This document shows positions 36,301 through 59,138 of a stretch of DNA of 64,000 bases, one piece after another. Where the stretch lies: NCBI GenBank assembly GCA_963815195.1, contig CAWFGE010000013.1, forward strand, positions 416,001-480,000, read 5' to 3'. Position numbers and translations under genes: made by a program. The stretch comes from an uncultured Planctomycetaceae bacterium. GTDB taxonomy: Bacteria; Planctomycetota; Planctomycetia; Planctomycetales; Planctomycetaceae. Within the stretch, counting starts at the first letter, position 1; each line of letters begins with the position of its first letter. Under the pieces are notes generated by a model. That model did not search any database, was not told the DNA's origin, and worked only from the letters and a program-made list of their open reading frames with translations.

Positions 36301-39300
36301 GCCTTTTCGGATCCGCACTCCGACTATGACCTTCGTAATTGGCAAGCCGTTGGCGGGACTGCACGTTCCACAACTCCACTTTCCCGTCGTAGCGGCCGAC
36401 CACCGCGGTGCGCGAATCCGGCAGAAACGCCAGGGCGTCAATCTCCGTCCCCATCGGCACGCGCGCGGCGAGCTTTTTATTGGGCACATCGTAAACCAGC
36501 AATTCGTTTTGGGTACCGCCCGCGATCAACGTCCGGCCATCGGGGCTGAAGGCGACGGGCCGCATTTTTTTCGTCGGGCCGGGGAGATTCGCGATCTCGT
36601 TCCAGGTCTCCGTGTTCCAGAGTTTGACGGTGCCGGCCTTGTTGCTTTCTTTGTAGTTGCCCGTTGTCGTGGCCGCGAGCTTGCCATCCGGCGAAAAGGC
36701 AATCCCAGTCACCGGCAATTCCTGTTTCGGCAACTCGCCGATCTTCTTGCGGGTTAGGACATTCCAGATCTTCGCATTGCCGTCCCAGTCTCCCGTGGCG
36801 AGGAGTTTTCCATCCGGCGAAAACGCCATAGCGGTGCCTTGCGATTGGCCGGTTTCCAGCGTATCAATCAATTCGAGTGTTTCCGTGTTCCAAAAATACA
36901 ATTTCCCGCCGAAGTCCACGGTCACCAGGAGTTTGCCGTCCGGGGCAAGCGCGCCGTCGCTGATGCCACGCGGGTGAACCGCAGTCTTCATGACCCGGCC
37001 CAGATTGAGATCCCACAGCCGGAGACTTTGGTTCTGGGTGCCGGTGATCATGCGGGTTCCCTCCGGATTGAAAACCACAAACCGCACGAGAGACGCTTCT
37101 CCGTTATCGGCGAGATTGAGATCCGCCAAGGCGGGGATCGGCGGCTCGATGGCGGGCCAGAGTTTCAGAGTTTTGTCATAGCTGCCCGTGACGATCCCCG
37201 AGGAATCGGGAGCATAGGACAGCGACGTGACGACATCCTGATGCCCGGTGAGCGTTTGCAGCGGCGAACCGCTTTGGCCGCTCCAGAGGCGGAGCGAATT
37301 ATCGAACCCGGCACTCGCGAGCGTCCGGCCGCGCGGCGAAAAGGCCAAGGCCCAGACCATCCCCGTGTGTCCTTTGAGTTCTTGGGGCGATTCGCCCGTC
37401 GCGGGGTTCCAGATGCGGATGGTTTTGTCTTCGCTCGCGCTCGCGATGCGGGCTCCATCTGGGGAATACGCCACCGCGCGGACGGCTGCGGTGTGGCCTT
37501 TGAGTTCCTTCAAGGGCTTTTGTGTTTCGAGATCCCATATCTGAACGGATCGGTCGCTGCTGCCGGAGACGAGATGTTTCCCGTCCGGCGAGAAGGCCAA
37601 GGACCGACGGCCGCGGTGTGCCCTTCCAGAACGCCCTTGGGTTCGCCGCCTGAGACGTTCCACAGCCGGATCGATTTGTCGTACCCGCCGCTCGCGAGGG
37701 TTTTGCCGTCCGGCGAAAAGGCCACCGAAAACACCCAGTTCGTGTGCCCTTTCAATGTCCGCAGCAACTCGGCCGATTCGGCGTTCCAAAGTTTGATCGT
37801 TTGATCGTAACTTCCCGTGGCCAGAGTTTGGCTGTCCGGAGAAAACGCGACCGTGGACACCACGTCGTCGTGGCCTTTGAAGGACTTCAAAAGTTTTCCG
37901 GTCGCGGCATCGCGGAGCCGGACCGACGTGTCTTCGTGCGTGGTCACCACAAACCGGCCGTCCGGGGAATGGGCGATCGCAAGTACGGCTTCCGGGGTGT
38001 CTTCGAGCGACTCGTGAGGCCGAAGGATCCCCTGAGGCACGCCGGTGTCGGGGTTCCAAATCCGAATCGTGGCGTCCTCGGCTCCGGTGGCGAGCGTTTT
38101 CCCATCAGGCGTGAACACCGCCGAGAGCGCTTCGCGTTCGTGGCCGGTCATCTGCCGCAGTATCCTGTGGTCTTTCATCACATAGACCGTGCCGTCGCCG
38201 CACGCGGCCGCCATCCGCCCGTCGGGCGCGTAGTTGACCTCGCGCACTCGTGCCCGGCAGGTTGAGGCTGGCGGTCTGTTTCCCGGTGCCGGGTTCCCAA
38301 AAGGCAACCGTGTTGCCAAATTCGCCGGTGGCGATTTCCTTCCCATCGGGTGAAAACTCACCGCGCCGAAAAACCATGCCGCCGGAGTCGAACTTCGCGA
38401 TTTGCTTGCCGCTTTCCACTTCAAACACCAGCCCGCGTCCGAAGCGGTTCTGCTGCTCGAAACTTCCGCCGACCGCCACGAGCAGTTTGCCGTCCGGCGA
38501 GAAGGCGACTTTCTGGAAGCGGAAAAAGTCCCCCTCGAAGGCCCGCTCCTCGTCCCATTGCCCGACGGTCCACATCATCAACTGGCCCGCTTCGTTGGCG
38601 GCCGCGAGGTATTTGCCGTCGGGCGAAAAATCCAGCCGGGCGATCTTCGTGCCGGTGCGTTTCTCGGCGACGAGTTCCCACGTGGCCGTGTCCCGAATCT
38701 GCAATTCGGCGTCTTGCCAGGTCGCGGCGGCGAGGTATTTCCCGTCCGGGCTGAACATCACTGTCGAGACGCCTCGACGCAGCGGAAATTTTTTCAGTAC
38801 CGTTTTCTCCGCGAAATCATAGACCACGATTTCGCCCGTCGTGTCCCAGCGGCCGTACCCCGCCGCCAAGAGCTTGCCGTCGGGAGAGAACGCCAGGTCG
38901 TGGACTTCCAGTTCCGCCATGGGAAAGCCTTGGGATTTTTTCTCGTACTCAACTGGCTCCTGACCGACGATGCGCTTCGCCTGTTGGCCGACGACGATGT
39001 GCTGGAATCCGGCTGGACCGGCTCGGCGGATTTCTGGGCGGTCTCCGCTTCAGCCGGGGCGGTTTCGGTTTTCGATGGGTTCGGCTTTTCGGCGGTCTGG
39101 GCGACCAGTCGGGGCAAGACCGACAGACACGCGACCGCGGCGGTCAGCAATAAGAACTTCGGCAAGCCCGCCAACCGGGCCGAGACTCCGCCTTGCATAA
39201 TCATGGTCAATCTCCGCTTGAGGAATTCCAAATTTCCGATGCCGCTTGCCGCGGGCGGCAAGGCTTTGGGGCTTTTTGACAAAAAATCCACCGTGGCCAC

Positions 39301-40353
39301 CAACGCGTGCGCATACACGCCGCCGCCTTGGCAATGCTCCACCACGAACGCGTCGCAGCATTCTTCTTCCACGATGCGGAGCTGCTTCCGGCCCCACCAC
39401 ACCAGCGGATGCCACCAATAAACGCCTTGGCACAAAAGCTCGAGCACGCGCACCCAATGATCGCCGCGCCGCATGTGGGCCAGTTCGTGAAGGATCAATG
39501 TCTCGGCCGCGTCGTCGTTCAAGCGGGCCAAGAGATCCTTGGGCAACAACAACCGGGGCCGCCAGCCGAACCCCCACAACATCGGCGAGACGGCACCACC
39601 TAGGAGATAAACGTCCGGGGCGCGGTTCAGTCCCACCTGCGTCGCCAACCGCCCGACCCAATGACGCAACGCGTCTCCCGCGGGCTCCGCGCGCTTGAGA
39701 GACCGTTCAAACTGCACGATCTGCCGGACCGCGCAGAAGAACACGGTCATCGCTCCCGCTCCCCAAACGACAAGCAGCCCCCACCACGCCGTTGTCCAAA
39801 AATCATGCAAAACCGGCGACGGCCGGCGCTCACCTGCGGGAAGAGGAGCAGTGGCGGGAAATCCCACGCCTTCCGAAGTCCGAGCCTTCCGGGCGGCCTG
39901 GGCTGGATCGCGTTCACGGCCCTTAAAAGAAGCGACCGTCTCTGGCGAGCCATCCTCCGTCACGCCGAACGATTCGTCAGGAAGATCCATCGCAAATTCG
40001 CCCGGTATCGTGGCCGGATCGGTGAAGTCCTCAATAACGACCGTCGGAAAGGGCTCCAAACCCGTGCCCTCTTGCCATGAGCGCGGACTGGTCGCCGGCG
40101 TTTCGGACAACGTCGCTTCGGGCATCTGCGGCACATCGTCGGGCACGGCCGGTTCCGGGGCCAAGGCCGAGATTTCGACGGGTACGGGAATCGTAACCAT
40201 CGGCGGCGTGACCAGCTTGAGCAGGACCACGACCCATAAGCCATGTAGCAGGGCGGGCTTATGATACCAGCGGGCCAAAACCACGACGCCAAGGGCGACG
40301 AGGCTCGCGACCAACGCATTCCCCAGCACAACAGCCACCAAAGACGTCAACAT
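33338..40353 (-). CDS. giant BlaR1/M56 metallopeptidase fused to about 40 WD40 repeats (frameshifts near 38950, 38250 and 37600)
   Basis: M56 domain with TM helices, HELAH, WWHPLVW, EECCD and LKRRL. It is followed by continuous WD40 repeats (AFSPDG...LATG..D..VKLW) across three ORF frames down to 33338. Confidence 0.8.
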
Positions 40354-40469
40354 CGCACACTCCCGTGAATACGGGCCAGGAGATTCGGACGGGGGCACCG
40401 ACCGGTTCCGCTTTCGAACCGCCGAGAGATTTCGGCCGCCTGGGGAAATGACCTTTCCGCCAGGCAAAT

Positions 40470-40877
40470 TTATCTGCGTTTTTTTTGCGAAGGGGGTTTC
40501 ACCGCGTCGAACTCATTGACGAGTTGGCGCAGCATTTCGATTTCTTCGGGCGTCAGCCGCTCCGGATCGACCAGGTGCATCAACAGGGGCGTTCGCGAGC
40601 CGTCGCACAGGTCATCGGCGACGGCGCTCAGCCGCCGTTCGATGAGATCCTCCCGGCCGACGCTCGCCGAGAACAAGAGCAACCGCCCCGTGTCGTCCCG
40701 GCGGACGCAATCTTTGGCTTCCAATCGCTCGAGAAGCTTCAGCACAGTGGGGGCGGCCCCTTTCTTTGCCGGGTACAGGGCTTCGGCCATCTGCCGCGTC
40801 GTCGAGGGGCCATGATCCCACAGGTGCGAAAGCACCGCGAACTCCGCGTCGGTCACATCATGCGTATGCTTCGTCAT
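40470..40877 (-). CDS. BlaI/MecI/CopY family transcriptional repressor
   Basis: VTDAEFAVLSHLW...TVLKLLERLEAK...LTPEEIEMLRQL, directly upstream of the M56 gene. Confidence 0.92.
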   Translation of the reverse strand: MTKHTHDVTDAEFAVLSHLWDHGPSTTRQMAEALYPAKKGAAPTVLKLLERLEAKDCVRRDDTGRLLLFSASVGREDLIERRLSAVADDLCDGSRTPLLMHLVDPERLTPEEIEMLRQLVNEFDAVKPPSQKKRR

Positions 40878-40891
40878 GTCATGCTCGCAAT

Positions 40892-40943
40892 AAAGACAGT
40901 GTGTCTTTTGCTCCACCATAAGACGCCCTGTCTTAAATTGCAA
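40892..40943 (-). promoter_or_regulatory. blaI promoter with two palindromic AAGAC-N5-GTCTT operators
   Basis: Minus strand TTGCAA-N17-TATGGT. Palindromes at 40892-40908 and 40919-40935, the second lying between -35 and -10. Confidence 0.7.
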
Positions 40944-41052
40944 GCGACTTTTTTGAAAAACTTGGAGATTCTCCGATTTGTTCCCGGCCTCGATTTTACC
41001 GGGTTCCCAGACGGGCCGTGTCACGGCTTTGTAACAACTCAAACTGTAAGCG

Positions 41053-41198
41053 TTTGGGTGGCTGGGGCGCAAATTCCCCTTGGAATAAGGCTTGAACTTT
41101 GAATGCTGGGGCTGTGGCCGGGCGAGAAGAATTTCACATGGCGCCAGGCCTCAAATCTGCTTTTACCTTGGAACATTCCTTTGCGCCCCAGCCACCCC
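41053..41198. repeat. about 145-bp MITE/REPIN-like element with GGGTGGCTGGGGCGC terminal inverted repeats
   Basis: TIRs at about 41056 and 41183. The interior is a diverged reverse-complement match to the 109-bp unit at 57831. Confidence 0.7.
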
Positions 41199-44361: not shown

Positions 44362-45524
44362 CTAAAGCGAATTCAATAGAGCACGCGTGGCGGTGAGTTC
44401 GCGGGTCAGGCCGTCCACGAGGTTCACCGCCCCGCCGGGCAGGACTTCCCAGGTATAGGTTTCCACCTCCAGGTGCGGCGCGGAATCCAATTCGGCGACG
44501 GCCCCAAGAGCCAGCTTCAATTCCCGCCGCGTGGTGCCCAGCGGACCGAGGTGCTCCGCGTCCACGGGCACGTGGAAATGGATCCGCCAGGCCTCGGCTT
44601 CGGCAAAATTCGAAGGCGGCTGAAGCGCCAGCGACTCGCTCAAATCCACATGCCGGAGCGTCTGGCCCGCGGCGGTCTTCGCCAGCATTTGATGCAAATA
44701 GCGAGGCTCGACATATTGTGCGAGCGCCTCTCGGCCCTCGGCATTCGCTGCGGGATTTTCGAGATGGATCGCGCAGGTGATGTGGATTTTATTGAGCCGA
44801 ATCCCCGCGGCGTCGATTTGCCGAATGGAATCCGCAACGTCTTCAAACTCCACCGCTTGATGGCAAACGTCATAACACAGGCCGAGGTATTCTTGGGCGA
44901 GGATCGGGCTTGATGTCTCGGCGGCGGTTTCAAACAGCTTCGTAAAAAAGGCAATCGATTCGTCCGTCGTTTCCAAAAGACAAAACGGCTCCGGTTCGAT
45001 CGCGAGGCGGACTTTGCGGCCCGTTTCCTGATAGAGACGATCCAGTTGCACCGCCAGGTCCAAAAGCTGCACGATGGCCTGGGCTTCAAAATCCGCCGGG
45101 TATTGGAAAACCTTAAAACCCAAAGGCACCGTGGAAATGCTGCCTTCCCCGCCCGCGGGCAACAGGGCCGCGAGGATCCGGCGCAGTTTTTCGTGTATTC
45201 CAGGCGCTCGGGATCGGTCCAATCCGGCAGGTAAACGTTTTCCTTCACCCGCTGGCTGTGAAAATCACCGAACGGAAACGCATTGAGTGTATGGCAACTT
45301 AAATCCTGGCGATGCAACTTCTCGGAGAATTCCTTGACGCCGTCGGGCGTGCTCAATAATTCCTCGACCACCGGTTGAGCGAGCCATAAGCCGGCCGCCA
45401 AGGGTTCGCCAAAGTTCGCGTGCATCGGGACGGTGTATTCATTGAGGCCATGCTCGACCTCGGCCACCGTGCGGCCTGGATGGACGTTGGTGCAATAACT
45501 CAAAGGCAGGGGGTTTAATGCCAT
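44362..45524 (-). CDS. eboE: metabolite traffic protein EboE (xylose-isomerase-like TIM barrel), frameshift near 45200
   Basis: LSYCTNVHPG, TLNAFPFGDFH...VKENVYLPDW, IEPEP, CYDVCHQAVEFE, EPRYLHQ, RIHFHVP, HLEVETYTW. Confidence 0.85.
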
Positions 45525-45666: not shown

Positions 45667-46548
45667 TCAGTACCCGATGCGGTGGCCGGTGGGATCGATG
45701 AGCCAGAGCCAATCGTCGAACAGGAATTCAAAGCGAATCGCCAAAAGCGCGATCCGGCCCATGACGGTATAGCCGAAGGCCGCCCCGAACGTAATCATCA
45801 GCACCCAGATTCCGACGCGAGAGATTTTTCCGACCGTGCCTTTGTGCTCGATGGAGAAGAAGAAGTACACGAGGCAGCACAGGATGCTGGCGATGATGAG
45901 CACGTTCTTCAGCGAATCCCAAGGTTCAAAGCTTCCTTCGCCGTTCAGCACGATCAAAGGCAGGATGCTGTTGTTGATCTGGCTGATGAAGTCGGCCTGC
46001 AGAAAGCCAATGAGCCGAATCCCGGCCGTCGCTCCGATGATAAACGCCAATGGCCAGCGGGAAATCCAGCCGCCGACGGGCATCAACCGCCAGAGGAGCA
46101 TCGCGCTTAAGATCAAAGGGATGATGGACCATTCCCAACCGCCGGTGTAAAGGGGCGAAAGTCCCGGCTGGGCCCAGGACTGAATCCAGGAGGGAAACAG
46201 CACGCCGAACAGGTTGGGAACCAGCGTCGTCCAAAACCCCACGACCATCCAATACGCGGCGGAGACGCCGACGACTGTGGATTCCGCCAGTTTGTAGAGC
46301 GGATTGTCGCGGTACAAAAAGGAGAACACGCACAAGGTCATGATTGCGGCGACCCAAATCCCGACGGTCCGCGAGAGGCTGAACTCCGCGGCCCCGGCGG
46401 CGGCTTCGGCGGGAGAGGCTCCCACCCAATTGCCCGCGGGCGTCTCGCGCACAAAGCCGAAGCCCATGCCCGAGGTCGTCGCGCGGTAAATCAGGAATCC
46501 GCCTCCCGCGACAAACAGAATCAGCCAGATTATCGTTTCACGTTTCAT
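45667..46548 (-). CDS. uncharacterised polytopic membrane protein (GlmL/DUF6754 cluster)
   Basis: About 7 hydrophobic helices with SFLYRDNPLYKLAE and MITFGAAFGYTVMGR. ATGA overlap with the upstream gene. Confidence 0.75.
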   Translation of the reverse strand: MKRETIIWLILFVAGGGFLIYRATTSGMGFGFVRETPAGNWVGASPAEAAAGAAEFSLSRTVGIWVAAIMTLCVFSFLYRDNPLYKLAESTVVGVSAAYWMVVGFWTTLVPNLFGVLFPSWIQSWAQPGLSPLYTGGWEWSIIPLILSAMLLWRLMPVGGWISRWPLAFIIGATAGIRLIGFLQADFISQINNSILPLIVLNGEGSFEPWDSLKNVLIIASILCCLVYFFFSIEHKGTVGKISRVGIWVLMITFGAAFGYTVMGRIALLAIRFEFLFDDWLWLIDPTGHRIGY

Positions 46549-47406
46549 CGGGTCGAACCCTCAAGCGAACGTTCCATAAAGAAGATCACATTCCCCGCGA
46601 TGATCAACAGGATCATCAAGACGTGGGCAATAAGCTGCGGCCCCATGCGGCGTTTGGCTTCCAGATATTTCGGATCGGGATTCGGGCCCGCGTATTCGTC
46701 GTTCACGAGCTTCTCATACTCCGCCGCCCCTTTGATGGCCCCCAACAAGCCCGGCAACTGATCGCCGAGATAAGGATAGAGTAATGGCGCTTGCACCCCG
46801 GTGCAGCCCGCGACCAGCGGGATTTTATAAGGCGTCGCCGCGTATTGGACCCACTCCTTCGTGCCCGGATAACCGGCGCTCACGTTGATGACCAAATCCA
46901 TGTCTTGCACGCTGTCGATTCCCCGGCACATGGGGATCTGGTCGATGTTCGTGCCGCGGGCGTCGGTCGTGTAAAGCTGCCGGAGATCGGTGACGATGAC
47001 CTTGATCACGCCTTCCTGCCCGGGCTTGAAGCCCAGGTTCACGTAGTCTTCGCCGTAGACGAGATGCGGGAAGTCGGCCTTGATGACGTTGTCGATGGAC
47101 TCGTCGATCATCTGCGGACCGACCGGCCAGAGGGCGAGGAAATACATTTTCAGTTTCTTCTCGCAGCAGTGCCGGACGAAGGCGGTGGCCATCGGGCCGA
47201 GTTCCCCTTCGCTGGCCGGGTCGAAGTCGAAGGCCAGCAGCACCTTGTCGCCCGGCTGCGAGGTCTTCGATTTCCTCGAACACGGAATCGGCGAGCTTCG
47301 TCGGCTTCTCGGGGAATTGCAGCTCGAGCAGGATCGGCACGCCCACCGCCAATGCCATCAGGAGAAAGATCCAGCGGCGGTCCACGTTTTTCAAGAATTG
47401 ATACAC
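46545..47406 (-). CDS. uncharacterised membrane-anchored alpha/beta protein (GlmL/DUF6754 cluster), frameshift near 47260
   Basis: N-terminal TM (DRRWIFLLMALAV), soluble domain (FDFDPASEGEL, YGEDYVNLGFKPG, GLLGAIKGAAEYE), and a C-terminal TM. Confidence 0.7.
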
Positions 47407-47409
47407 GGG

Positions 47410-49239
47410 CTAATCCTCCGACGAACCCAAATAGGATCGGTCGATTCCCAAGAGCACTTTCAGCGATGTCGAGGCAATCCCCAGGGCGATCCCGATCATG
47501 ATCGCCCGGTTCCCGGCGGTGTTGAACACGATCATGATGTAAACGGCCAGGTTTTCGATTCTGAGGCCCGACAACGACTCCGGCATCCAGGAGGTCAACC
47601 ACACCCCGGCGGCAACTCGGCCGAGCAAAATGATGAATGCCGTCCCCAACAGCAAGGTGGCCTCCAGGTTCTTCGCCCGGAACGCCCGGAACGCCGCCGA
47701 TGCCACATAAAACGCCAACAGCGAGAACATCGTCGCCGTCAGCGGCTTGAAGAGATACTCGTAAATCCACCAGAACGGCGTGCCCTGTTCGCGGTAGTCG
47801 CCCGACCAGCGATATTTGATCTGATGGGCCAGCTTGAACAGCTTCACGATTTGCTCTTGCCAGGCGGTCTCGGCTTTGAGTTCCGCCAGCAGAAAATCTT
47901 TCTGCTCCGGCGTGAGCGGCCCGTGCTTGAGCAACGCGAAATACAGCGCACGGTTCCGATCGCCGATCGTGGGCTGCGATTGCAGGAATTTTTTCAAGGC
48001 CGCTTTCTGGCCGTCGCTCAACGGGCCGGCTTGTTCGAGCTGCTTTGTGAGCCGGTCCGTCAATTGTCCCGGGGGAGCCGGTTCGATCGCCGCCCTCAAC
48101 AGCCCTTCCTGCGCGGCGTTCAATTTCTTCGCGGGCTTCTCGGCGACAGCGGGCGGGCTGGTGCCGATTTCGGACAACATTTCGCAGGCGTCTTTTTCCG
48201 GCGCTTGATAGGCCCCGCCCGCGTTGATCGCTTCAATCAGTTGATCCGCGGTCCAGAGTCCGTCCAAGACCTTATTGAATTCTTCGAGTTGTTCTTCATT
48301 CAAAGGTTCGCCGCGGGATGCCATGTCTTCGCGGAGGGCGGTTCGCTCCTCATCCGTCAACGGGACCGCCACGGGAAACTGATCGAGCAGCGCGTCCCGC
48401 TCCGCGGTGGACATCGGGCCTTCAAACGCCAGCGTGCCCGAGTCCTTTTTGAACATGGCCACCTGAGCCAACGACTTCGGCACGGCAAAACTCGGCGGCC
48501 GTTCGGCTTTCACTTCCACAATGCGATGCGATCGTTCGCTCAATTTGTTGACGGCCGATTCCCAGGCCTCGTCGCCGTTCATCTTCAGCAGTTCGCTGCG
48601 CCGTTGGTCGGTCATCGCCCCTTTGAAGGCGAGCGTTTCGTGATCGGACAGGAAGGAAATCTTGCCTTTGAGATCCTGGGTCGGCTGCGCGGTCTCTGCC
48701 AAATGTTCGACGGCGCACCGCCACTTGAGCGAGCTGTCATATTCGTTGAGATCCTCGATCTGGTTCTCGCGGATCCAGCCTTTGAACACGATCTGGCCGT
48801 CTTTTCCCGAAAGTTGCCTGCGGACCGACGCGGGCAGTTCCTCCTCGACTTCGCGGTGCGGGATCTCGCCGGGGACGCGGAAGGTTTGCGAGTCGGGAAG
48901 GTCTTCCAAGGGGAAGTCGGCGAAGACCTGGCCGTAGAATTCCTGGTTCGGCGCGGGCGGGGCTCCGACTTTGATGAGCCCCACAATCAGCGTGACGAGG
49001 AACGCGAGCAACGTGATCATCGCATAACCCCAACCGGCCGACCGGTCGCTGATCTTCTTGAGTTGGACTTTGAGCAAGTTGCCGCCGCCCAGAATGAACG
49101 CGACCGCCGCGAGGATGTCAAACCAGACGGCCGCCACTTCCCCCCAGCCCACGGTGGCGGGAATGAACGATGCGACGATCAACACAAACCCCACCGCCGC
49201 GGTGATGAGCAGGGGCGTCGTGCGTTTCAAAAAGTTCAT
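47410..49239 (-). CDS. uncharacterised polytopic membrane protein with a large soluble insertion
   Basis: Three N-terminal TMs, a roughly 400-aa hydrophilic insert, and C-terminal TMs with ATMFSLLAFYVASAAFRAFR and RAIMIGIALG...LKVLLG. Confidence 0.75.
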   Translation of the reverse strand: MNFLKRTTPLLITAAVGFVLIVASFIPATVGWGEVAAVWFDILAAVAFILGGGNLLKVQLKKISDRSAGWGYAMITLLAFLVTLIVGLIKVGAPPAPNQEFYGQVFADFPLEDLPDSQTFRVPGEIPHREVEEELPASVRRQLSGKDGQIVFKGWIRENQIEDLNEYDSSLKWRCAVEHLAETAQPTQDLKGKISFLSDHETLAFKGAMTDQRRSELLKMNGDEAWESAVNKLSERSHRIVEVKAERPPSFAVPKSLAQVAMFKKDSGTLAFEGPMSTAERDALLDQFPVAVPLTDEERTALREDMASRGEPLNEEQLEEFNKVLDGLWTADQLIEAINAGGAYQAPEKDACEMLSEIGTSPPAVAEKPAKKLNAAQEGLLRAAIEPAPPGQLTDRLTKQLEQAGPLSDGQKAALKKFLQSQPTIGDRNRALYFALLKHGPLTPEQKDFLLAELKAETAWQEQIVKLFKLAHQIKYRWSGDYREQGTPFWWIYEYLFKPLTATMFSLLAFYVASAAFRAFRAKNLEATLLLGTAFIILLGRVAAGVWLTSWMPESLSGLRIENLAVYIMIVFNTAGNRAIMIGIALGIASTSLKVLLGIDRSYLGSSED

Positions 49240-49297
49240 GCGGGCCGTCTCCCTGGGGTGCCGTCTGGTCGCCTGATTTTTGACATGTTAAAGGCCT

Positions 49298-50521
49298 TTA
49301 TGACAACACTTCGGATTTGAGAAATTCCACGGCATTTTCAAAGAACTCGGCTCCCGTAAGGTTGAACAGCGTCGCAAAGATGCAGCCCAATAGCAAGAGG
49401 CAGCCCACGATCAGCTTGCCCACATCCTGGCCTTTGAGGCTGCCGAGTTGGTCGGGGTCGCCCGACAAGTAAGCCGAGGCCGCGAAGAATTCTTCGCCGA
49501 TCAACGTGTAATCGCAGGCCGCCACGAAGAACGGCAGCTGCGCCGGCTGGGCCGTGCCCGCGACCTGGATCGCTCCGATGGAGTTCCCGGTCTCGGCGAG
49601 GATCAGCGACTCGGCGAAGAACGAGCCCATGTAAAAACACGCGGCGGGCTTTTCGCGAACCATCATCCCGGACAAATACGCGACGTAGCCGAATTGCTCG
49701 TCGGTCACGTAATAGATGCGGTCTTCGTTGTAGGCGTCGGGCCGGCCCGCGGCGAGGTAAGCGGACTGCACGGTCTCGCGGCCCGTGGTCATCACCAGGG
49801 ATCGGCTCGTGGGGACTTCCACGACGGCGTCGTATTCCGCCGCCGTCTTCGCCACCCGCGAAAGCACCGTAAGCCCCGCCACGGTCTGGATGTCGTTGAT
49901 GTCCTGGACGCCTGGCACGAACAAGCACGTCCGGCCCATTTCGGTCGCCCGGCCGACGGCTTCATCGACCGCTTCCAGACCCGCGATTTTGCGAATCTTG
50001 AGCTCCCGCCCCGTGCGGGCAATCCCGATAAAGATAATCACCGAACCGCACACCAACGTGGTGATGATCGCCAGTCCGAACCGATCGCCCAAGAACCATT
50101 CCCGCGTGGCTTCGGCGGGTTCTTCGGTCGTGATCCAAGCCGAGGTGTCGCCGCCGGGTGACACGGCCCGCACGCGAAAATAATACGGTTCCCGCCGGTG
50201 GTTCTTGCCGACGGTCACGGTGATCGTGCCGGCCTCGTACGCGTCTTCATCCGGCACCGCCAGCCCGACATCCGTAAAGATGCCATCGGGTTCAACAGCC
50301 CGCTGCACGACATACCGCGCGACGCCGGGCGTTTCGAGGCCGGGCTTGTCGCTCGGCGAGAGCTTGAACGTCACATCGATCTGCTCGCCGTTGTCGAGCG
50401 GATGATCGCTCGCCGTCACATTTCGTGGCGGAGCCGGCACCGCGGCGCTGCCAGCGTCGGGCAGAAGAACCACGGCCGCCGCGAACGTCAGCAGAATGAA
50501 CAAGCATTGTGTCGGACGCAT
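49298..50521 (-). CDS. FN3-like plus DUF6754 domain membrane protein
   Basis: Signal peptide, FN3-like (PPRNVTA...YYFRVRAV), TM, IRKIAGLEAVDEAVGRATEMGR, FFAESLILAE, DYTLIGEEFFAASAYL, and a C-terminal TM. Confidence 0.75.
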   Translation of the reverse strand: MRPTQCLFILLTFAAAVVLLPDAGSAAVPAPPRNVTASDHPLDNGEQIDVTFKLSPSDKPGLETPGVARYVVQRAVEPDGIFTDVGLAVPDEDAYEAGTITVTVGKNHRREPYYFRVRAVSPGGDTSAWITTEEPAEATREWFLGDRFGLAIITTLVCGSVIIFIGIARTGRELKIRKIAGLEAVDEAVGRATEMGRTCLFVPGVQDINDIQTVAGLTVLSRVAKTAAEYDAVVEVPTSRSLVMTTGRETVQSAYLAAGRPDAYNEDRIYYVTDEQFGYVAYLSGMMVREKPAACFYMGSFFAESLILAETGNSIGAIQVAGTAQPAQLPFFVAACDYTLIGEEFFAASAYLSGDPDQLGSLKGQDVGKLIVGCLLLLGCIFATLFNLTGAEFFENAVEFLKSEVLS

Positions 50522-50524
50522 GGA

Positions 50525-51653
50525 TTATTCTCCAATAATCTCCACATTGGCGCGGGGGACGAGGACTTTGCTGCCGGATTCCAGATCGACTTCCAGGACG
50601 CGGGCTTTGGAGCCCGAGCCGAGGACTTTGGGTTCCGGAGGGCAGGCCGCTGACGTGGCCGATCAGGCCGAAATGCGGGTCGCGGATGATCCGCACCGGG
50701 GAGCCGATGTTCAAGGCTCCGTCCGCGTGGGCGGGCTCGGCTTCTTGGTTGAGTTCGTCCCCTGAAAGCGGGATCAGAATCTCCGGCCGCATCACGCCCG
50801 CGCGGATTTGCGTGGCCCCGTTGACCGCGGCGTCATCGCCTTCGCGGGACTTCAAAAGCCCGAACGTGCGCTCGGCCATGGCGATCTCGCCGAAGCCTTC
50901 AGTGATGATTACCGTGGTGCCGACGTGTTCGGAACCCGTGACCGCCACGCCCAGGTCGTAGCCGAGGATTTCCTTGAGATCCTGATCGTCCATCCCGCCG
51001 GAGACGACCGCCGAGATGCCGATGTCGATAGCTTTCCGCACGGCGTCGCCGGTCATTCTCGCCCCGCCGATGACGATGTGGTCTTTCATGTCCGAGGAGA
51101 GCAGTTGGGCGGTGAGTTCTTCCTTAGGGTCGGCACAGGCCATTTTGAGTTTGCCGTAGGCTTCGCCGCCGATGCCGAAGATGCCCTGGATGTAGGTGAT
51201 GTCGGCTTCGATGACCACGCCTTCGTTGGGAATCACCTCGATGACTTGTCCCGCCAGGAATGCGAGCACCCGCACGGCGAGCGGCTCGCCGCGAATGATG
51301 AGCTGCCCGGTGACTTTGGAGACCGATTCCAGCGTGCCCGCCGCCTTGGATTTGTACTCGTTCTTGAACATCCCGAAGATGCCCTTGGTCCGGGCGAGCG
51401 GCTGGCCGATCTCGACGGCTTCGCCTTCCTTCACGAGCAGAGATTCGCTGACTTCGGCCGGCGGCAGCGAGAGCAGATTCGCCAGGTTAATCGGCGTGAC
51501 ATCGCCCGGCATAAACGTTTGGGCGACGACGTCCCGCGCCCCGACCTTCTGCCCGACCTCGACGAGCACATCGCCCGCAATCGGCAACAGCCGCCGCGTC
51601 TGATGCCTGACGCGATTGGTGACTTTTAATCCGGGTGTGTATGCAACAGCCAT
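50525..51653 (-). CDS. conserved hypothetical protein with barrel-sandwich-hybrid-like repeats and a C-terminal KOW-like motif (frameshift near 50640)
   Basis: MAVAYTPGLKV, VLVEVGQKV...VVA, LVKEGEAVEIGQPLA, IITEGFG, TQIRAGVMRPE, GSPVRIIRDPHFG, and VPRANVE in the shifted frame. Confidence 0.7.
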
Positions 51654-51687
51654 GCAAAGAATCTTTTCTTCTTCAAACGAACACAAA

Positions 51688-51817
51688 GGCGAGCGGGGGG
51701 CGTAAGCCCCCTGGTTGCTCACGATGTGTGATCGTGTATTGCGCTTCTATTGACTTCCATAAATCGAAGTTCTTTCAGCATTCCACATAACCAGGGGGCT
51801 TACGCCCCCCGCTCGCC
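51688..51817. repeat. REP-like inverted pair, family C (GGCGAGCGGGGGGCGTAAGCCCCCTGG)
   Basis: Near-perfect arms of about 29 bp around an AT-rich spacer. A related half copy lies at about 17333-17356. Confidence 0.8.
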
Positions 51818-51820
51818 GTT

Positions 51821-53645
51821 TTACTCGGGATAAAGTTGTAACTCATCAATCCAACTCTTCACCGCACTCCGACACGCGACCGGATCTTGCGGCAAGGATA
51901 GCGGGCGGCCGCGGGCGTCGAGAATCAAACCCACGGTGCCGCCTTTGACGGTTTTCTTGATTGCTTTGCCGGAGCCGGCTCCCATATTAAAACCCTTGGC
52001 CGGATCGATTTCGACCTCGGCGGTTTGGTCTTCCGCGAGCGGGAAGAGTTTCATTTCGCCGTAGGCCAACTCTCCCTGTTCCGAGAGGCCGCCGCCTTCG
52101 ATCTGGTACTTAAAGCACGCTTTGCCCGGCTTGCCGGTGCCGGCGGGGGCGATGCAGGTGCCCAGGTAGATCAAGCAGTCCCGCTCGAAGACTTCGAGGG
52201 CCGCCGCGGGATGCACTTGGGCCAGCACGCCCAGATGGGGCATCATGAAGATGCTGTCTTTCGCGAGCGTCGTGAAACCTTCCGGCTCGAAGGCATCGAC
52301 CAGCATCGCGGCCGTCTGGTGCATTCGCGGGGCATGCGACAACACGCCGCCCGATGCGACCAACAGGTTGAGCTTCATGTTATCGACGATCGTCTGCCCG
52401 CTGGTCTGCTGGCTGAACGTGTCGCCCACGGTCCGCTGCTGCTGCACGCCTTTAAGCGTCGTGGCGAACTCCTTGTGCTGGATGTAAGCGAGCCTGAGCG
52501 CTTCCGCGCGACGGCTTGCTCGAAGATTAAGGCCTCGAGCGTTTGCGGGATTGTGGTGGGGCGGATCATTTTGTTCTTCACGCGGTTTCTGAGGTCCCGC
52601 TCGTCCATGTCGAAATGCACCCACCTTAGAGATCATCGGCAGCGTGGCCTCGGCACAGACGTTGGAGATCGAATAGCTCATCCCCAGATTCGCCGAGACC
52701 GTGCGGTTGAAAACCGGGTCTTCCGAATCGGGGTCGCGGAACACGCTGAACACGTCCGTCGTCGCCCCGCCGATGTCCACACCGACCGCCGTGATCCCCT
52801 GCCGCTCGGCGATGGTTTGCAGAATGTTCCCCACCGCGCCGGGCGTGGGCATGATCGGGGCGTCGGTCCATTCGATGAGCTTGTTATAACCCGGGGCGTG
52901 GGCCATCACGTGTTCGAGGAACAGATCGTGAATCGCATCGCGGGCCGGGCCAAGGTTCTCCCGTTCGAGCACCGGGCGGAGGTTGTCCACGATCTTCAGC
53001 TCGACCGAGTCTGTCGAACACCTTCGCGACCAAGGGGGCGGCGTCTTTGTTCCCCGCATAGACCAGCGGCATGCGGTATTCCTTCCCGAACCGCGGCTGC
53101 GGCTTGGCGGGGGCGATGAGTTCGGCAATCTCCACCACCTTCGTCGCGTTGCCGCCGTCGGTGCCTCCGGAGAGCAAAATCATATCCGGCCGCAGTTCGC
53201 GGATCCGCTGGATTTGCTCGTGCGGCAGGCGTTTGTCGTTGGAGGCGATCGTGTCCATCACAATCGCCCCGGCTCCGAGGGCAGCCCGCTTGGCGCTGGC
53301 GGCGGTCATCTCCCGCACGATGCCCGCGACCATCATCTGCAGTCCCCCGCCCGCGCTCGAGGTGGAGATATAAATATCGCAACCTTCGCCGTCTTTGGCG
53401 GGGCGGATGATGTTGCCGTCGTCATCGACCAGTCGACGGCCCGCGAGTTCGCCGACTTCGGTGACGGCATTCACCACGCCCACGGTCACATCGGCCACGG
53501 GTTGCTCGACGGTCGTGGGGGCTTCGCCGCGATAGGTCTGGCGGTAATGGCCGTCGACTTTTTCGATGAGGATGGCCTTGGTCGTCGTGCTGCCGCAGTC
53601 GGTGGCCAGGATGACGTTGATTTTGTCGGGATCAAGCTGGTTCAT
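51821..53645 (-). CDS. glutamate mutase L (GlmL/MutL)-family ASKHA ATPase, frameshifted
   Basis: ATDCGSTTTK (phosphate-1), TSSAGGGLQM, AALGAGA, LLSGGTDGG, YAGNK, MPTP, VDIGGATTDVFS (phosphate-2), RTVSANLG, SGGVLSH. Confidence 0.8.
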
Positions 53646-54006
53646 CGGGGGTGTCTGTCCGTAAGTCGTCCTGTGTGGGGGCGGCTTCGTGCCGGGTCGC
53701 TTCGGCTTCGAGTTCTTCAATCCGCCGGCAAAGGTACTCAATCGAACCGCGTTGTTCCAGGAAGGCGGCAAAATGCCGGTGCCCGCCGGTTTTGCTCAGC
53801 ACCGACAACACCGGGGCGAAAAAATGCAGCGCCTGCGAGCCGAGGTAGTTCAGCGGCCGGGACATTTCCAAAAACACGAGGGCCGGCGTGGTGAGATGCC
53901 GTTTGACGATCTGCCGGCACACCGCATCCACCGCGTGCCGCTGTTCGGGCGTGGGTTCGGATGGTCCGGGCGGATCGACCGCAAACGCATGTTTCAACCA
54001 CTGCAT
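53632..54006 (-). CDS. small conserved hypothetical protein (GlmL cluster)
   Basis: IVKRHLTTPALVFLEMSRPLNYLGSQALHFFAP...LEQR. Overlaps the start of the GlmL gene. Confidence 0.7.
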   Translation of the reverse strand: MQWLKHAFAVDPPGPSEPTPEQRHAVDAVCRQIVKRHLTTPALVFLEMSRPLNYLGSQALHFFAPVLSVLSKTGGHRHFAAFLEQRGSIEYLCRRIEELEAEATRHEAAPTQDDLRTDTPDEPA

Positions 54007-54640
54007 GGCGTTCGCTCCTCCTGTGAAACTTCCACTTTCGTGCGTATCTCAGAAAGGTTGGCAAGATCCGGCTGGCACGTCCCGGAGCGCAGCGAAAGGG
54101 GTGGCGAATCGCAAGCACCATCCCGTTGACCACGCCCTTCGTTCCTCAGGGCGTGCCGCCCCTCCCGCGAAACGTCCCGCACAATCGCCCCGTCCGGCAA
54201 CAGATTGCAAATCTGCCGGATGACCTCTTCCGAGTTCTTGCCAAACAGCACCGAGACGCCGCGGTATTCATCCAGAAACGACCGCTTCGTGCGGGGCGAC
54301 AAAAACCCGCCGGCTTCGTCGAAGACAAACCGCCGAAGTTCCGCCCATGGGTAGCGAGCGGTTTTGAGCGGAAAGCGGGCCGAGATGCCCTCTGCGTCCA
54401 ACTCATACCGCGTCGGAAAGAAAAACCGATTGCACCCGACCAGCAACACCCCCGCCGCGAAAACTCCCCAGCCGGGTTGTTCCATCAACTCCGCGCACAG
54501 CCAAGCAGCCAGAAGGATCGCCAGCAACACACAAAGCGCGGTTCCCGGGCGGCTCCCGTGCCGGGTGAACTCGCCAGGCCAAGATGGAGGACGGAGGTGC
54601 ATCCAACGCAAAATCTTTCGCCAAAACCGGTAAGGGCGTT
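53994..54640 (-). CDS. hypothetical 2-TM protein with a bPH-like beta region (start uncertain, probable frameshift near 54550)
   Basis: Two hydrophobic helices followed by FFFPTRYELDAEGI...YPWAELRR...LSP...LDEYRGV. Confidence 0.55.
54070..54161. repeat. REP-like inverted pair, family E
   Basis: ggcacgtcccggagcgcagcgaa ... cccttcgttcctcagggcgtgcc. Same family as 61226-61306. Confidence 0.7.
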
Positions 54641-54691
54641 TTGGAGTTACGATAGCATCCCCGCACCGAGAATGCGACCAACCGCAGCGCT

Positions 54692-55153
54692 TCATTCCTG
54701 CGCCTGGAATCCCAGATCGACATCATAGTAATTGAGCGCCCATTCCTTCATGTACCTGACCTGGTTGGGGACGATGCGGTACACGATGAGGTCCGGGTTG
54801 TCGAGGCTGCCCAGGTATTGGCGGAGGAGCGGGTTTTCGTTCCAGATGTCTTCGAGCAGCGGCCGGTCGGTGACGACTTCGGCCACGCCGGTGATGCGGA
54901 CCTGGTTGTGCCCCTCGTCCAGGTAGCACAGCTCGACTTTGGGGTTGGCGGCGATTTCTTCGGTCTTGTGATACTGCCGAAGGTTCGCGACATACACGGT
55001 GAAGCGTTCCGTGCGGACGGGAGACACGGGCCGCAGGCGGGCCTGGTCTCCGTCCATCGACGCGAGGTACGGAAACCGGTCGTGGGCGACGACGCCGAGC
55101 GCTAACTCTTCCACGCGGGCGGGATCGAGAGGTTCCGGAACGGGCTTGGTCAT
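54692..55153 (-). CDS. pyridoxamine 5'-phosphate oxidase-like (FMN-binding split barrel) protein
   Basis: YLASMDGDQARLRPV, KTEEIAANPKVELCY, QVRITGVAE. Confidence 0.85.
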   Translation of the reverse strand: MTKPVPEPLDPARVEELALGVVAHDRFPYLASMDGDQARLRPVSPVRTERFTVYVANLRQYHKTEEIAANPKVELCYLDEGHNQVRITGVAEVVTDRPLLEDIWNENPLLRQYLGSLDNPDLIVYRIVPNQVRYMKEWALNYYDVDLGFQAQE

Positions 55154-55338
55154 CGTTGGGGCTTCCTGTGTTGTAAACTGTCGGCGGGGCGATGCTCATG
55201 GTAGCATACCGCGAATCGATTGCGTTTTTCAAAACCGCCCGGTAGGTTGGTTTGCGGGTTTTACGAAGAAATTCAGGTTAAGGAAAGTCGCCCTTCGGGG
55301 AGCGAAGGGCGACTTTCGTTCCCTTTCCAAAGGTTTCC

Positions 55339-57794: not shown

Positions 57795-58157
57795 GGGGTG
57801 GCTGGGGCGCACTGAAATTCATCAAGCGAAAAACGCGTTTCGAAAGCTGGGGCCGTGGGAGTTATTTCTCTCGCGTTCATCGCCCCAGTACTTCGCTTGC
57901 CTCACTTTATTCATAAAGGAATCTGCGCCCCAGCCACCCAAACGCGTTTCGAAAGCTGGGGCCGTGGGAGTTATTTCTCTCGCGTTCATCGCCCCAGTAA
58001 TTCGCTTGCCTCACTTTATTCAAAAAGGAATCTGCGCCCCAGCCACCCAACCGCGTTTCGAAAGCTGGGGCCGTGGGAGTTATTTCTCTCGCGTTCATCG
58101 CCCCAGTACTTCGCTTGCCTCACTTTATTCAAAAAGGAATCTGCGCCCCAGCCACCC
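57795..58157. repeat. MITE/REPIN-like element: one left TIR plus 3 x 109-bp tandem units ending in the right TIR
   Basis: Units start at 57831, 57940 and 58049 with few differences. Each ends in gcgccccagccaccc, the inverse of ggggtggctggggcgc at about 57795. Confidence 0.9.
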
Positions 58158-58160
58158 AAA

Positions 58161-58275
58161 CGCAGGGCGCTAGCCCCGGTTTTCGCGGGCGACGTGGACG
58201 TCAGCGCGTTCCGCCCGGTCTCGACCAAGGGAGGATCTCTGAAAATCCAGACCGGCGGCTAGCGCGTTGCCGCTC
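58161..58275. repeat. family-B REP pair
   Basis: cgcagggcgctagccccggtt ... accggcggctagcgcgttgccgctc. Confidence 0.75.
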
Positions 58276-58280
58276 GCTTC

Positions 58281-59138
58281 TCAAGCGAACGCCTTGTGGA
58301 ACGGCGTGATGGCCCTGGCATCCTGGCTGTGATCGAGCACCGCGAAGACCACCCGGTCGAACGCGTCGCGGAAGGTTTCGTTTTCCACGAAATGGTATCG
58401 GAACCAGCCGGCGACGTCGGCGGGATCGTTCTGGAACACGCCGCAGCCCCACGCCCCCAGGACCAGCGTGGTGTGCCCGCAGACCACGGCGACCGACAAC
58501 AGCTTCTCCATCCGCCGAAGCATCGTTTCCTGGATCCGCGGGATGTTTTCGGGTTCGTTCTGGCGGACGGCCCCGGCATTGACCGCGGGAGCGGTCAACA
58601 GGGACACGAGCCAAGGCGTTTCCAACAGCCGGTCTTCATCATCCCGAAACACCGGCACCCGCGGGGAATGGATCAGGTGGTCGGTATACAGGCTGGATCG
58701 GTAGCGGGCGTTGGTGTCGTACATGGTCCGCATCGGCGAGATGCAGGCGTAAAGTCCCGACGCCCGGGCGAGGCTTTCCTCCTGGGCCTGGCTGCCGTTC
58801 AAAAACCCGCCGCCTGGATTCTTGGCCGACGCAAAGTTCAGGCACAGCACATCGCCGCATTTTTCGTGTTCCACCAGATGCCGGGCGGCGGCGAAGGTGG
58901 TGGCGTCGACGACCTCGAACCGGGTCGGCTTGGGGCAAGGCGAACCGGCGAGCCGTTCGTCGCGGCGGGCGAAGACCTGGGGAAACTGCTGCGGAGCGAA
59001 AAGCTGCGACCCATCGACCGCCTCGCTTAACGCCTCCGCAATCTCCACCGTTTGGCCTCGGGGAGATTGATAATGGCCGCGCTTTAGAATCTCAAGCGTG
59101 TCGCGCGCAATCGCCGCGCGCCCCTGTCGACTTGGCAT
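58281..59138 (-). CDS. TIGR02452 / DUF2263 bacterial-type poly(ADP-ribose) glycohydrolase (macrodomain)
   Basis: LNFASAKNPGGGFLNGSQAQEESLAR (GGG-X6-QEE), SPRVPVFRD, LVLGAWGCGVF. Confidence 0.9.
   Translation of the reverse strand: MPSRQGRAAIARDTLEILKRGHYQSPRGQTVEIAEALSEAVDGSQLFAPQQFPQVFARRDERLAGSPCPKPTRFEVVDATTFAAARHLVEHEKCGDVLCLNFASAKNPGGGFLNGSQAQEESLARASGLYACISPMRTMYDTNARYRSSLYTDHLIHSPRVPVFRDDEDRLLETPWLVSLLTAPAVNAGAVRQNEPENIPRIQETMLRRMEKLLSVAVVCGHTTLVLGAWGCGVFQNDPADVAGWFRYHFVENETFRDAFDRVVFAVLDHSQDARAITPFHKAFA

Follow-up and report, generated by a model that had tools for sequence, protein, structure and literature searches.

GlmL and MutL proteins are normally the accessory or reactivating ATPases of B12-dependent mutases (GlmS/GlmE, OraS/OraE). 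What, then, is such an ATPase doing in a dense cluster of membrane protein genes with no mutase gene among them? The cluster lies in a 64,000-nucleotide stretch of planctomycete DNA (the window, C13:416001-480000), taken from a genome of 8.87 Mb that is 94.6% complete and whose closest listed relatives are Planctomycetaceae. It is concluded that the ATPase belongs to a system which is real and widespread, and which matches no characterised family. Eight genes almost certainly constitute a single unit that operates independently of any mutase, and a tentative reading is that they encode an ATP-driven membrane transporter. The eight genes are as follows, in window coordinates (indel, insertion or deletion):

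53994..54681, minus strand: PH-like small membrane protein (weak bPH_6 match; start approximate; one indel at 54551)
53632..54006, minus strand: 124-residue protein of no known family, usually just 5' of GlmL (no Pfam or NCBIfam match)
51821..53645, minus strand: long-form ASKHA ATPase of the GlmL/MutL family, about 608 residues (PF13941; three indels, at 53013, 52631 and 52505)
50525..51653, minus strand: partner protein, 375 residues (predicted structure and fold matches; indel near 50638)
49298..50521, minus strand: membrane subunit A, DUF6754 (PF20539)
47410..49239, minus strand: membrane subunit B, M609 (alignment and topology prediction)
46545..47406, minus strand: membrane subunit C, M286, about 286 residues (predicted structure; indel near 47260)
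45667..46548, minus strand: membrane subunit D, M293, 293 residues (alignment; unnamed Atlas clusters only)

Gene layout and reading frames

The preliminary description of this locus, made from the sequence alone, had placed nine co-directional genes here with tight junctions between them. This was confirmed: all nine are on the minus strand, densely packed from 55153 down to 45667, the ninth being a flavin gene at the 55153 end. The PH-like gene and the 124-residue gene overlap by 13 base pairs (bp; 53994/54006), and the 124-residue gene overlaps the GlmL gene by 14 bp (53632/53645). GlmL is separated from the partner gene by a spacer of 167 bp that contains a genome-wide repeat. Gaps of 3 bp lie between the partner and DUF6754 genes (50521/50525) and between subunits B and C (47406/47410), with 58 bp between subunits A and B, and subunits C and D overlap by 4 bp (46545/46548). 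Promoter and terminator scans gave results that were at chance level or uninformative.

A Pfam scan of the nine genes found PNPOx_N, MutL on both pieces of the frameshifted GlmL gene (192 bits each) and DUF6754 (407 bits). The partner had a weak Biotin_lipoyl match under the Pfam cut-off, and the remaining five genes had no Pfam match above it.

Four of the reading frames are broken, by six single-base indels near 54551, 53013, 52631, 52505, 50638 and 47260. Two of the six (at about 53010 and at 54551) are missing from short-read contigs of a near-identical organism (run X1), flanking genes, among them eboE and the sulfatase, are likewise split, and the frames are intact in relatives at about 85% identity. 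The breaks are therefore most likely sequencing errors. In the short-read comparison, where coverage is patchy, no difference is listed at the other four.

Conservation of the gene set

Searching with the DUF6754 protein yielded 63 related loci, many of them truncated at contig ends. Beside DUF6754, subunit B is present in 51 of these, subunits C and D in 47 each, and the partner in 42, followed by GlmL (34), the 124-residue gene (28) and the PH-like gene (12). The flavin gene, which had been counted as a member of the set, is next to DUF6754 in none. It is a bystander and is to be dropped, leaving eight genes. Gene order is identical at every locus with several of the genes present, and is kept in records named Planctomycetota, Acidobacteriota, Marinimicrobia, Zixibacteria, Latescibacterota, Gemmatimonadota, Ignavibacteria and Cloacimonadota. 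In two further loci (L074 and L078), GlmL and the partner are placed after the cassette of membrane subunit genes.

Among 201 genomes of the same phylum, the same 56 have DUF6754 and subunit C, and 55 have subunit D; the long form of GlmL occurs in 56 and the swivel domain of the partner in 54. All five of these components were found in 52 genomes, none in 143, and some in six (G050, G053, G139, G190, G169 and G195), all of which are multi-contig drafts. The carriers of DUF6754 are spread over 21 of 74 families. The system is kept in all 12 genomes of the window's family, and in the family f27 GlmL is present in 11 of 11 genomes and the cassette in 10. In several single-contig genomes (G035, G101 and G120) the components are far apart; in G035, for example, GlmL is at 0.79 Mb, the partner and DUF6754 at 0.29 Mb, C at 3.53 Mb and D at 2.30 Mb. 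That they are kept together even when so scattered indicates a link beyond shared position. The question of whether the gene set is conserved together in other genomes, which the preliminary description had raised, is thus answered by its co-occurrence both in the loci and in the genomes.

Cassettes are present in two to four diverged copies per genome, often with one GlmL. Two DUF6754 genes accompany a single GlmL in nine genomes, and in G202 four cassettes were found with one MutL match. The families are large: the partner has at least 8000 protein clusters, and subunit C 3306 representatives at 50% identity.

In Zixibacteria, an extra gene of about 215 residues without a Pfam match lies between subunits B and C of one cassette (L043:11816-12463, L045:10418-11029, L051:11936-12607 and L061:11797-12471), and at L006:9959-12182 and L016:9920-12212 a lone DUF6754 gene lies between a seryl-tRNA synthetase gene and an MshEN/T2SSE ATPase gene.

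GlmL and the mutase question

The GlmL of the window matches PF13941 and has both phosphate motifs intact (DCGSTTTK and DIGGATTD), in agreement with its earlier recognition as an ASKHA homologue of GlmL/MutL. Four motifs are invariant in alignments of long GlmL proteins, namely DxGSTTTK, TSSAGGGL, DIGGATTD and SGGxLSH, which we take to be phosphate-1, connect-1, phosphate-2 and adenosine respectively. The long form, of about 600 residues, has an extra C-terminal region of about 120 residues, and canonical GlmL aligns only with residues 8-490 of it, at 26-32% identity. Canonical GlmL has 461-467 residues and sits between glmS and glmE in five out of five annotated loci. The long form also has RTVSANLG in place of the RTVEGD.G of two canonical sequences. 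On the two frameshifted pieces of the window's GlmL, the NCBIfam model NF040745 gave 117 and 96 bits (cut-off 475) and NF040744 gave 104 and 83 bits (cut-off 600). In a tree of 25 long and 7 canonical sequences the two forms were split with 100/99 support, with long branches flagged. The GlmL studied here is on a separate branch from the mutase-linked proteins, and so does not show the grouping that would have refuted the preliminary description. Sequence searches of the PDB gave no significant match, and GlmL in particular matched no PDB chain.

MutL/GlmL is described as a chaperone that reactivates glutamate mutase (PMC4682846). The glutamate mutase GlmL/MutL (PF13941, NF040745) and the GlmL-related ornithine protein (NF040744) share the ASKHA motifs and about 480 alignable residues with the long form. 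The long form differs from mutase GlmL in its length (about 600 residues and not about 460), in having a fixed swivel-domain partner and a membrane cassette, and in lacking glmS and glmE as neighbours.

One explanation would make this a conventional reactivase, serving a B12 mutase whose gene is elsewhere, and lying only by chance next to membrane genes. The Pfam MutL label speaks for it, as does G201, a carrier which has a lysine-aminomutase-family gene on another contig. Against it, glutamate mutase E, lysine/ornithine aminomutase and methylmalonyl-CoA mutase were not found in the window's own genome, and the first two were found in none of 54 genomes that carry GlmL. The same searches matched strongly on records with known operons, used as positive controls (for PF09043, the built-in control was blank and positive controls were added). 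G201, G195 (a fragment only) and G000 are outside the set of 54, and G000 was searched separately. The three B12-binding matches in the window's own genome resemble methionine synthase and two radical-SAM proteins, and the GlmL branch is separate. A reactivase of this kind is extremely improbable. The earlier statement that B12 mutases are missing here is upheld for all the searched families in the genome itself, and for the first two in the 54 carriers.

GlmL and the partner are fused in five loci (L013, L054, L012, L077 and L089). Divergent second clades of the long GlmL and its partner, some of them fused and without the KOW domain, were noted at L075, L079, L077 and L089; no cassette adjoins L075, L077 or L079.

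The partner protein

The structure of the partner was predicted with a predicted local distance difference test (pLDDT) score of 85.5. Residues 51-123 are similar in fold to the barrel-sandwich part of NqrA/RnfC (Z 6.8-7.0), which bears out the barrel-sandwich hybrid originally proposed. Residues 152-297 form a swivelling beta/beta/alpha domain, which matches enzyme I of the phosphotransferase system (PTS; Z 8.8, root-mean-square deviation (rmsd) 2.7, 107 residues aligned), as well as the small subunit of aconitase X (Z 7.6) and rifampin phosphotransferase. Residues 311-375 form a C-terminal KOW barrel, and the top structural matches of the partner include RraA and the KOW domains of NusG and Spt5. 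These fold scores are middling, and indicate folds and not function.

The fold of the swivel domain, shared with PTS enzyme I and rifampin phosphotransferase, raises the possibility that the system is a membrane-bound enzyme or group translocation system, in which GlmL phosphorylates or activates a substrate as do ASKHA enzymes of the hydantoinase/oxoprolinase type or PTS relays. One fused GlmL has a weak Hydantoinase_A match, and alignment A8 has three invariant histidines in GlmL. Within the swivel domain the invariant residues are G, T, E, Q and R, and conservation stays below 60% in every His, Cys and Lys column of the 27 sequences. The conserved phospho-accepting His of a PTS-like phosphorelay is therefore missing, a phospho-histidine relay is unlikely, and that role was rejected. 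A biotin or lipoyl carrier role was likewise rejected, since the barrel-sandwich region has no invariant lysine for biotin or lipoate. Nor does any metabolic gene recur nearby, and we consider an enzymatic function quite improbable.

Another possibility is a transmembrane signalling device, whose variable outer domains sense a cue while the ATPase and the KOW partner switch transcription, translation or some other cytoplasmic target. The matches to NusG, Spt5 and RraA would agree with this, as would the interchangeable outer domains described in the next section. However, the NusG match is one of domain content only (rmsd 13.9 over 110 residues), KOW/SH3 barrels are common, and no regulator gene recurs next to the operon. 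Some 16 membrane helices are also more than receptors usually need. Signalling is a rather unlikely role.

The membrane subunits

Topology was predicted from hydropathy and the positive-inside rule. Subunits A and C have two predicted helices each, B has six and D about six (the topology of D being less sure), with the DUF6754 domain predicted to be inside and the domain of subunit C outside. Subunit A consists of an N-terminal hydrophobic leader, an outer FN3-like domain, a helix, a cytoplasmic DUF6754 domain of 200 residues, and a second helix. It is a member of Pfam DUF6754 (PF20539), scoring 407 bits against a cut-off of 27; the family has no described function. Of the FN3-DUF6754 architecture proposed earlier, the DUF6754 part is thus secure, while the FN3 part comes from the Pfam labels of relatives, the window copy itself giving no match. 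In relatives the outer part of A is interchangeable, consisting of FN3 repeats, PQQ-type propellers or HEAT repeats, and can reach over 1000 residues. Two long subunit A proteins (P0333 and P0338) have a C-like domain in the outer part, which fits the placing of the C domain outside.

Subunit B has a six-helix core of about 230 residues and a lineage-specific insert of about 380 residues in an outer loop; its relatives have either 205-246 or 516-628 residues. The insert (about 47790-48960) contains three short L-x-F-x-G-x-(M/I) segments, which appear repeat-like by eye, unconfirmed by self-blastp, and it has one weak match elsewhere on C13 (E 0.003). Subunit C is predicted, with a pLDDT of 97.3, to consist of a helix, an outer Rossmann-like domain and a second helix. 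Its best fold match (MTH777, Z 9.3) is generic. Subunit D is polytopic, and an Atlas search with it gave unnamed clusters only. It has invariant Arg, Glu and Thr residues in or beside its helices; both B and D have invariant arginines, and conserved polar and charged residues are found in or beside the membrane helices. Subunits C and D are fused in one locus (L040) and in three proteins (P0126, P0127 and P0142). By eye, subunit A is similar to subunit C, and the two have opposite predicted orientations; an inverted duplication was not supported by profile comparison, which gave a homology probability of 3% or less for A with C, and likewise for B with D.

The outer domains could also belong to an ATP-driven machine for envelope building or export, which moves or inserts a lipid, a lipid-linked sugar or a surface protein, the FN3 or propeller domains spanning or tethering the periplasm. 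The size and composition of the outer regions of A are consistent with this, as are the invariant arginines of B and D and the retention of the system in every genome of the window's family (12 of 12) and in f27 (10-11 of 11). Genes for TolB-like, OmpA-like and CsgG-like proteins adjoin it in L072 and L074, but such envelope neighbours are not recurrent. The system was not found in 143 of the 201 genomes of the phylum, and so is not core envelope machinery, and the presence of as many as four diverged cassettes in one genome points to different cargoes. An envelope-building machine is unlikely.

A predicted contact between GlmL and DUF6754

A three-chain structure was predicted for GlmL, the swivel domain and the DUF6754 domain, using sequences from the relative L002. 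The DUF6754 domain was placed with a score of 0.50, compared to 0.00 in all three controls, including one in which GlmL was replaced. The prediction runs share at least 93% of contacts, and partner pLDDT is at least 73. In the calibration, 116 of 157 solved pairs and 2 of 215 mismatched pairs attained the mark; at scores of 0.60 or under, only 18 of the 157 attained it, and so did both mismatches. The complex is unlike the calibration set. The prediction weakly supports docking of the cytoplasmic DUF6754 domain on GlmL. Given the prior from co-occurrence, it is taken as modest support, and the inter-subunit interfaces looked for in the preliminary description are represented to this extent by a contact that depends on GlmL.

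A proposed ATP-driven transporter

The original suggestion of an ATPase-driven membrane machine is supported by the joint conservation of the genes, by the separate branch of this GlmL, by the failure to find the mutases and, weakly, by the predicted contact; that the machine is a transporter is tentative. We consider it plausible, with some hesitation, that a reactivase-like dock-and-release motor driven by ATP powers a four-subunit inner-membrane transporter with about 16 helices and interchangeable outer modules. The long GlmL and its swivel-domain partner would form the motor, which would dock on the cytoplasmic DUF6754 domain of subunit A within the four-subunit complex. The two proteins may act in the manner of the alpha subunit of glycerol dehydratase reactivase, binding the docking domain and releasing it with ATP hydrolysis. 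Since about 16 membrane helices are attached to the docking domain, this cycle would open and close a pathway. Cargo would be captured by the outer Rossmann-like domain of C together with the variable outer domains of A and B, and one motor could probably serve several cassettes. In ECF transporters a motor is similarly shared among several modules. The fusions, the surplus of cassettes over GlmL in some genomes and the conserved polar and charged residues of the membrane helices are in keeping with this scheme.

In the alpha subunit of the reactivase an Hsp70-like ATPase is combined with a swiveling domain, and ATP hydrolysis frees the beta subunit (PMC7674605). An ASKHA ATPase and a swiveling domain are common to the glycerol/diol dehydratase reactivase (PDB 1NBW) and the present system, where they are encoded by two genes or by a fusion. 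Here the swivel domain belongs to a protein, separate or fused C-terminally, that also contains barrel-sandwich and KOW domains; what is presumed to be the docking domain is bound to the membrane, and there is no dehydratase gene among the neighbours scanned.

ECF and ABC importers combine a soluble ATPase module with membrane subunits. The system is like them in this respect, and in having one motor with several cassettes in some genomes, but its ATPase is ASKHA and not P-loop ABC. No P-loop ABC ATPase, ABC permease, EcfT or S-component family was found by Pfam and NCBIfam in the eight genes and their alignments. The likeness to Rnf/Nqr consists of the barrel-sandwich region of the partner, similar to the N-terminal part of NqrA/RnfC, and of several small polytopic subunits. 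In contrast to Rnf/Nqr there is an ATPase in place of redox input, and Pfam and NCBIfam found no flavin, Fe-S or FMN-binding family in the conserved subunits.

Several observations weigh against a transporter of this kind. Subunits B and D matched nothing when compared with transporter families and solved structures, and the modelled fold of subunit C is a generic Rossmann fold and not that of a recognised solute-binding protein. There was no substrate theme among 103 neighbouring or core proteins scanned, two of which are clearly peptide-ABC parts. The dehydratase reactivase is missing among the listed fold matches, so that the likeness to it is an analogy on domain content only. DUF6754 stands alone in 10 of the 63 loci, some with long flanks, and for one of the ten the genome has a full operon elsewhere (L003 and L057). 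G169, which is 99% complete, has GlmL and the partner with no cassette match. Finally, related genomes are not independent samples, and no statistic is therefore claimed for the co-occurrence.

For the proposed transporter, the cargo that fits best is a small solute, ion or cofactor needed by heterotrophs and autotrophs alike. Hydrazine synthase alpha, a marker of chemolithoautotrophic anammox bacteria, was found in three of three genomes tested from f27; that the system is kept in such genomes weighs against peptide or sugar feeding as its sole role. A riboswitch search of the window and 45 loci found none, returning two tRNAs only, and thus gave no clue to the substrate. The idea of cobalamin import gained no support from it.

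Known ATP-driven membrane machines are few in kind (ABC/ECF, P-type, rotary and secretion ATPases), and we know of none in which an ASKHA motor is used in this way. More doubtfully, the system may represent a new class of primary active transporter, in which a motor with the actin/Hsp70 fold, and not a P-loop or P-type ATPase, docks on and releases a membrane-tethered domain and is shared by interchangeable four-subunit cassettes. Mutase-linked GlmL would then be a shortened offshoot or a cousin. In line with the preliminary description, no functional description of the gene set was found in the literature searched, which leaves most subscription papers outside its coverage, and the term DUF6754 gave no paper there.

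Besides being abundant, the system is retained by anammox-type genomes and by phyla found in sediments and soils. Annotations of the long proteins as 'glutamate mutase L' should be corrected, as such proteins are no sign of glutamate fermentation. Genetically tractable planctomycetes belong to the window's family, so that an experimental test looks feasible.

Neighbouring genes and repeats

Two further features lie within or beside the cluster:

54692..55153, minus strand: PNPOx-like flavin split-barrel gene, co-directional bystander (PF01243)
51677..51817, no strand: REP-like inverted repeat between GlmL and the partner, outside the system (fold z = -11)

The inverted repeat at 51677-51817 is near-perfect and REP/MITE-like; blastn finds 229 pieces of it in the genome. 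Another repeat family, with 108 blastn pieces, is found in the 3' end of the PH-like gene, at 54010-54170, and lengthens its frame compared to relatives. Between the flavin gene and a divergent esterase-like gene there is a palindromic hairpin (55270-55330; 16 blastn pieces in the genome). Downstream of the cluster by 142 bp, on the same strand, is a frameshifted eboE-like TIM-barrel gene (44362-45524), followed by a split sulfatase gene; eboE adjoins none of the 63 related loci.

Further away, several open reading frames with near-identical translations at 57855-58309 point to about three tandem copies of a repeat of about 109 bp. A gene for a microbial-type poly(ADP-ribose) glycohydrolase (PF10021) is at 58281-59138, and genes for a BlaI-type repressor and a BlaR1/M56 peptidase are at 38794-41072.

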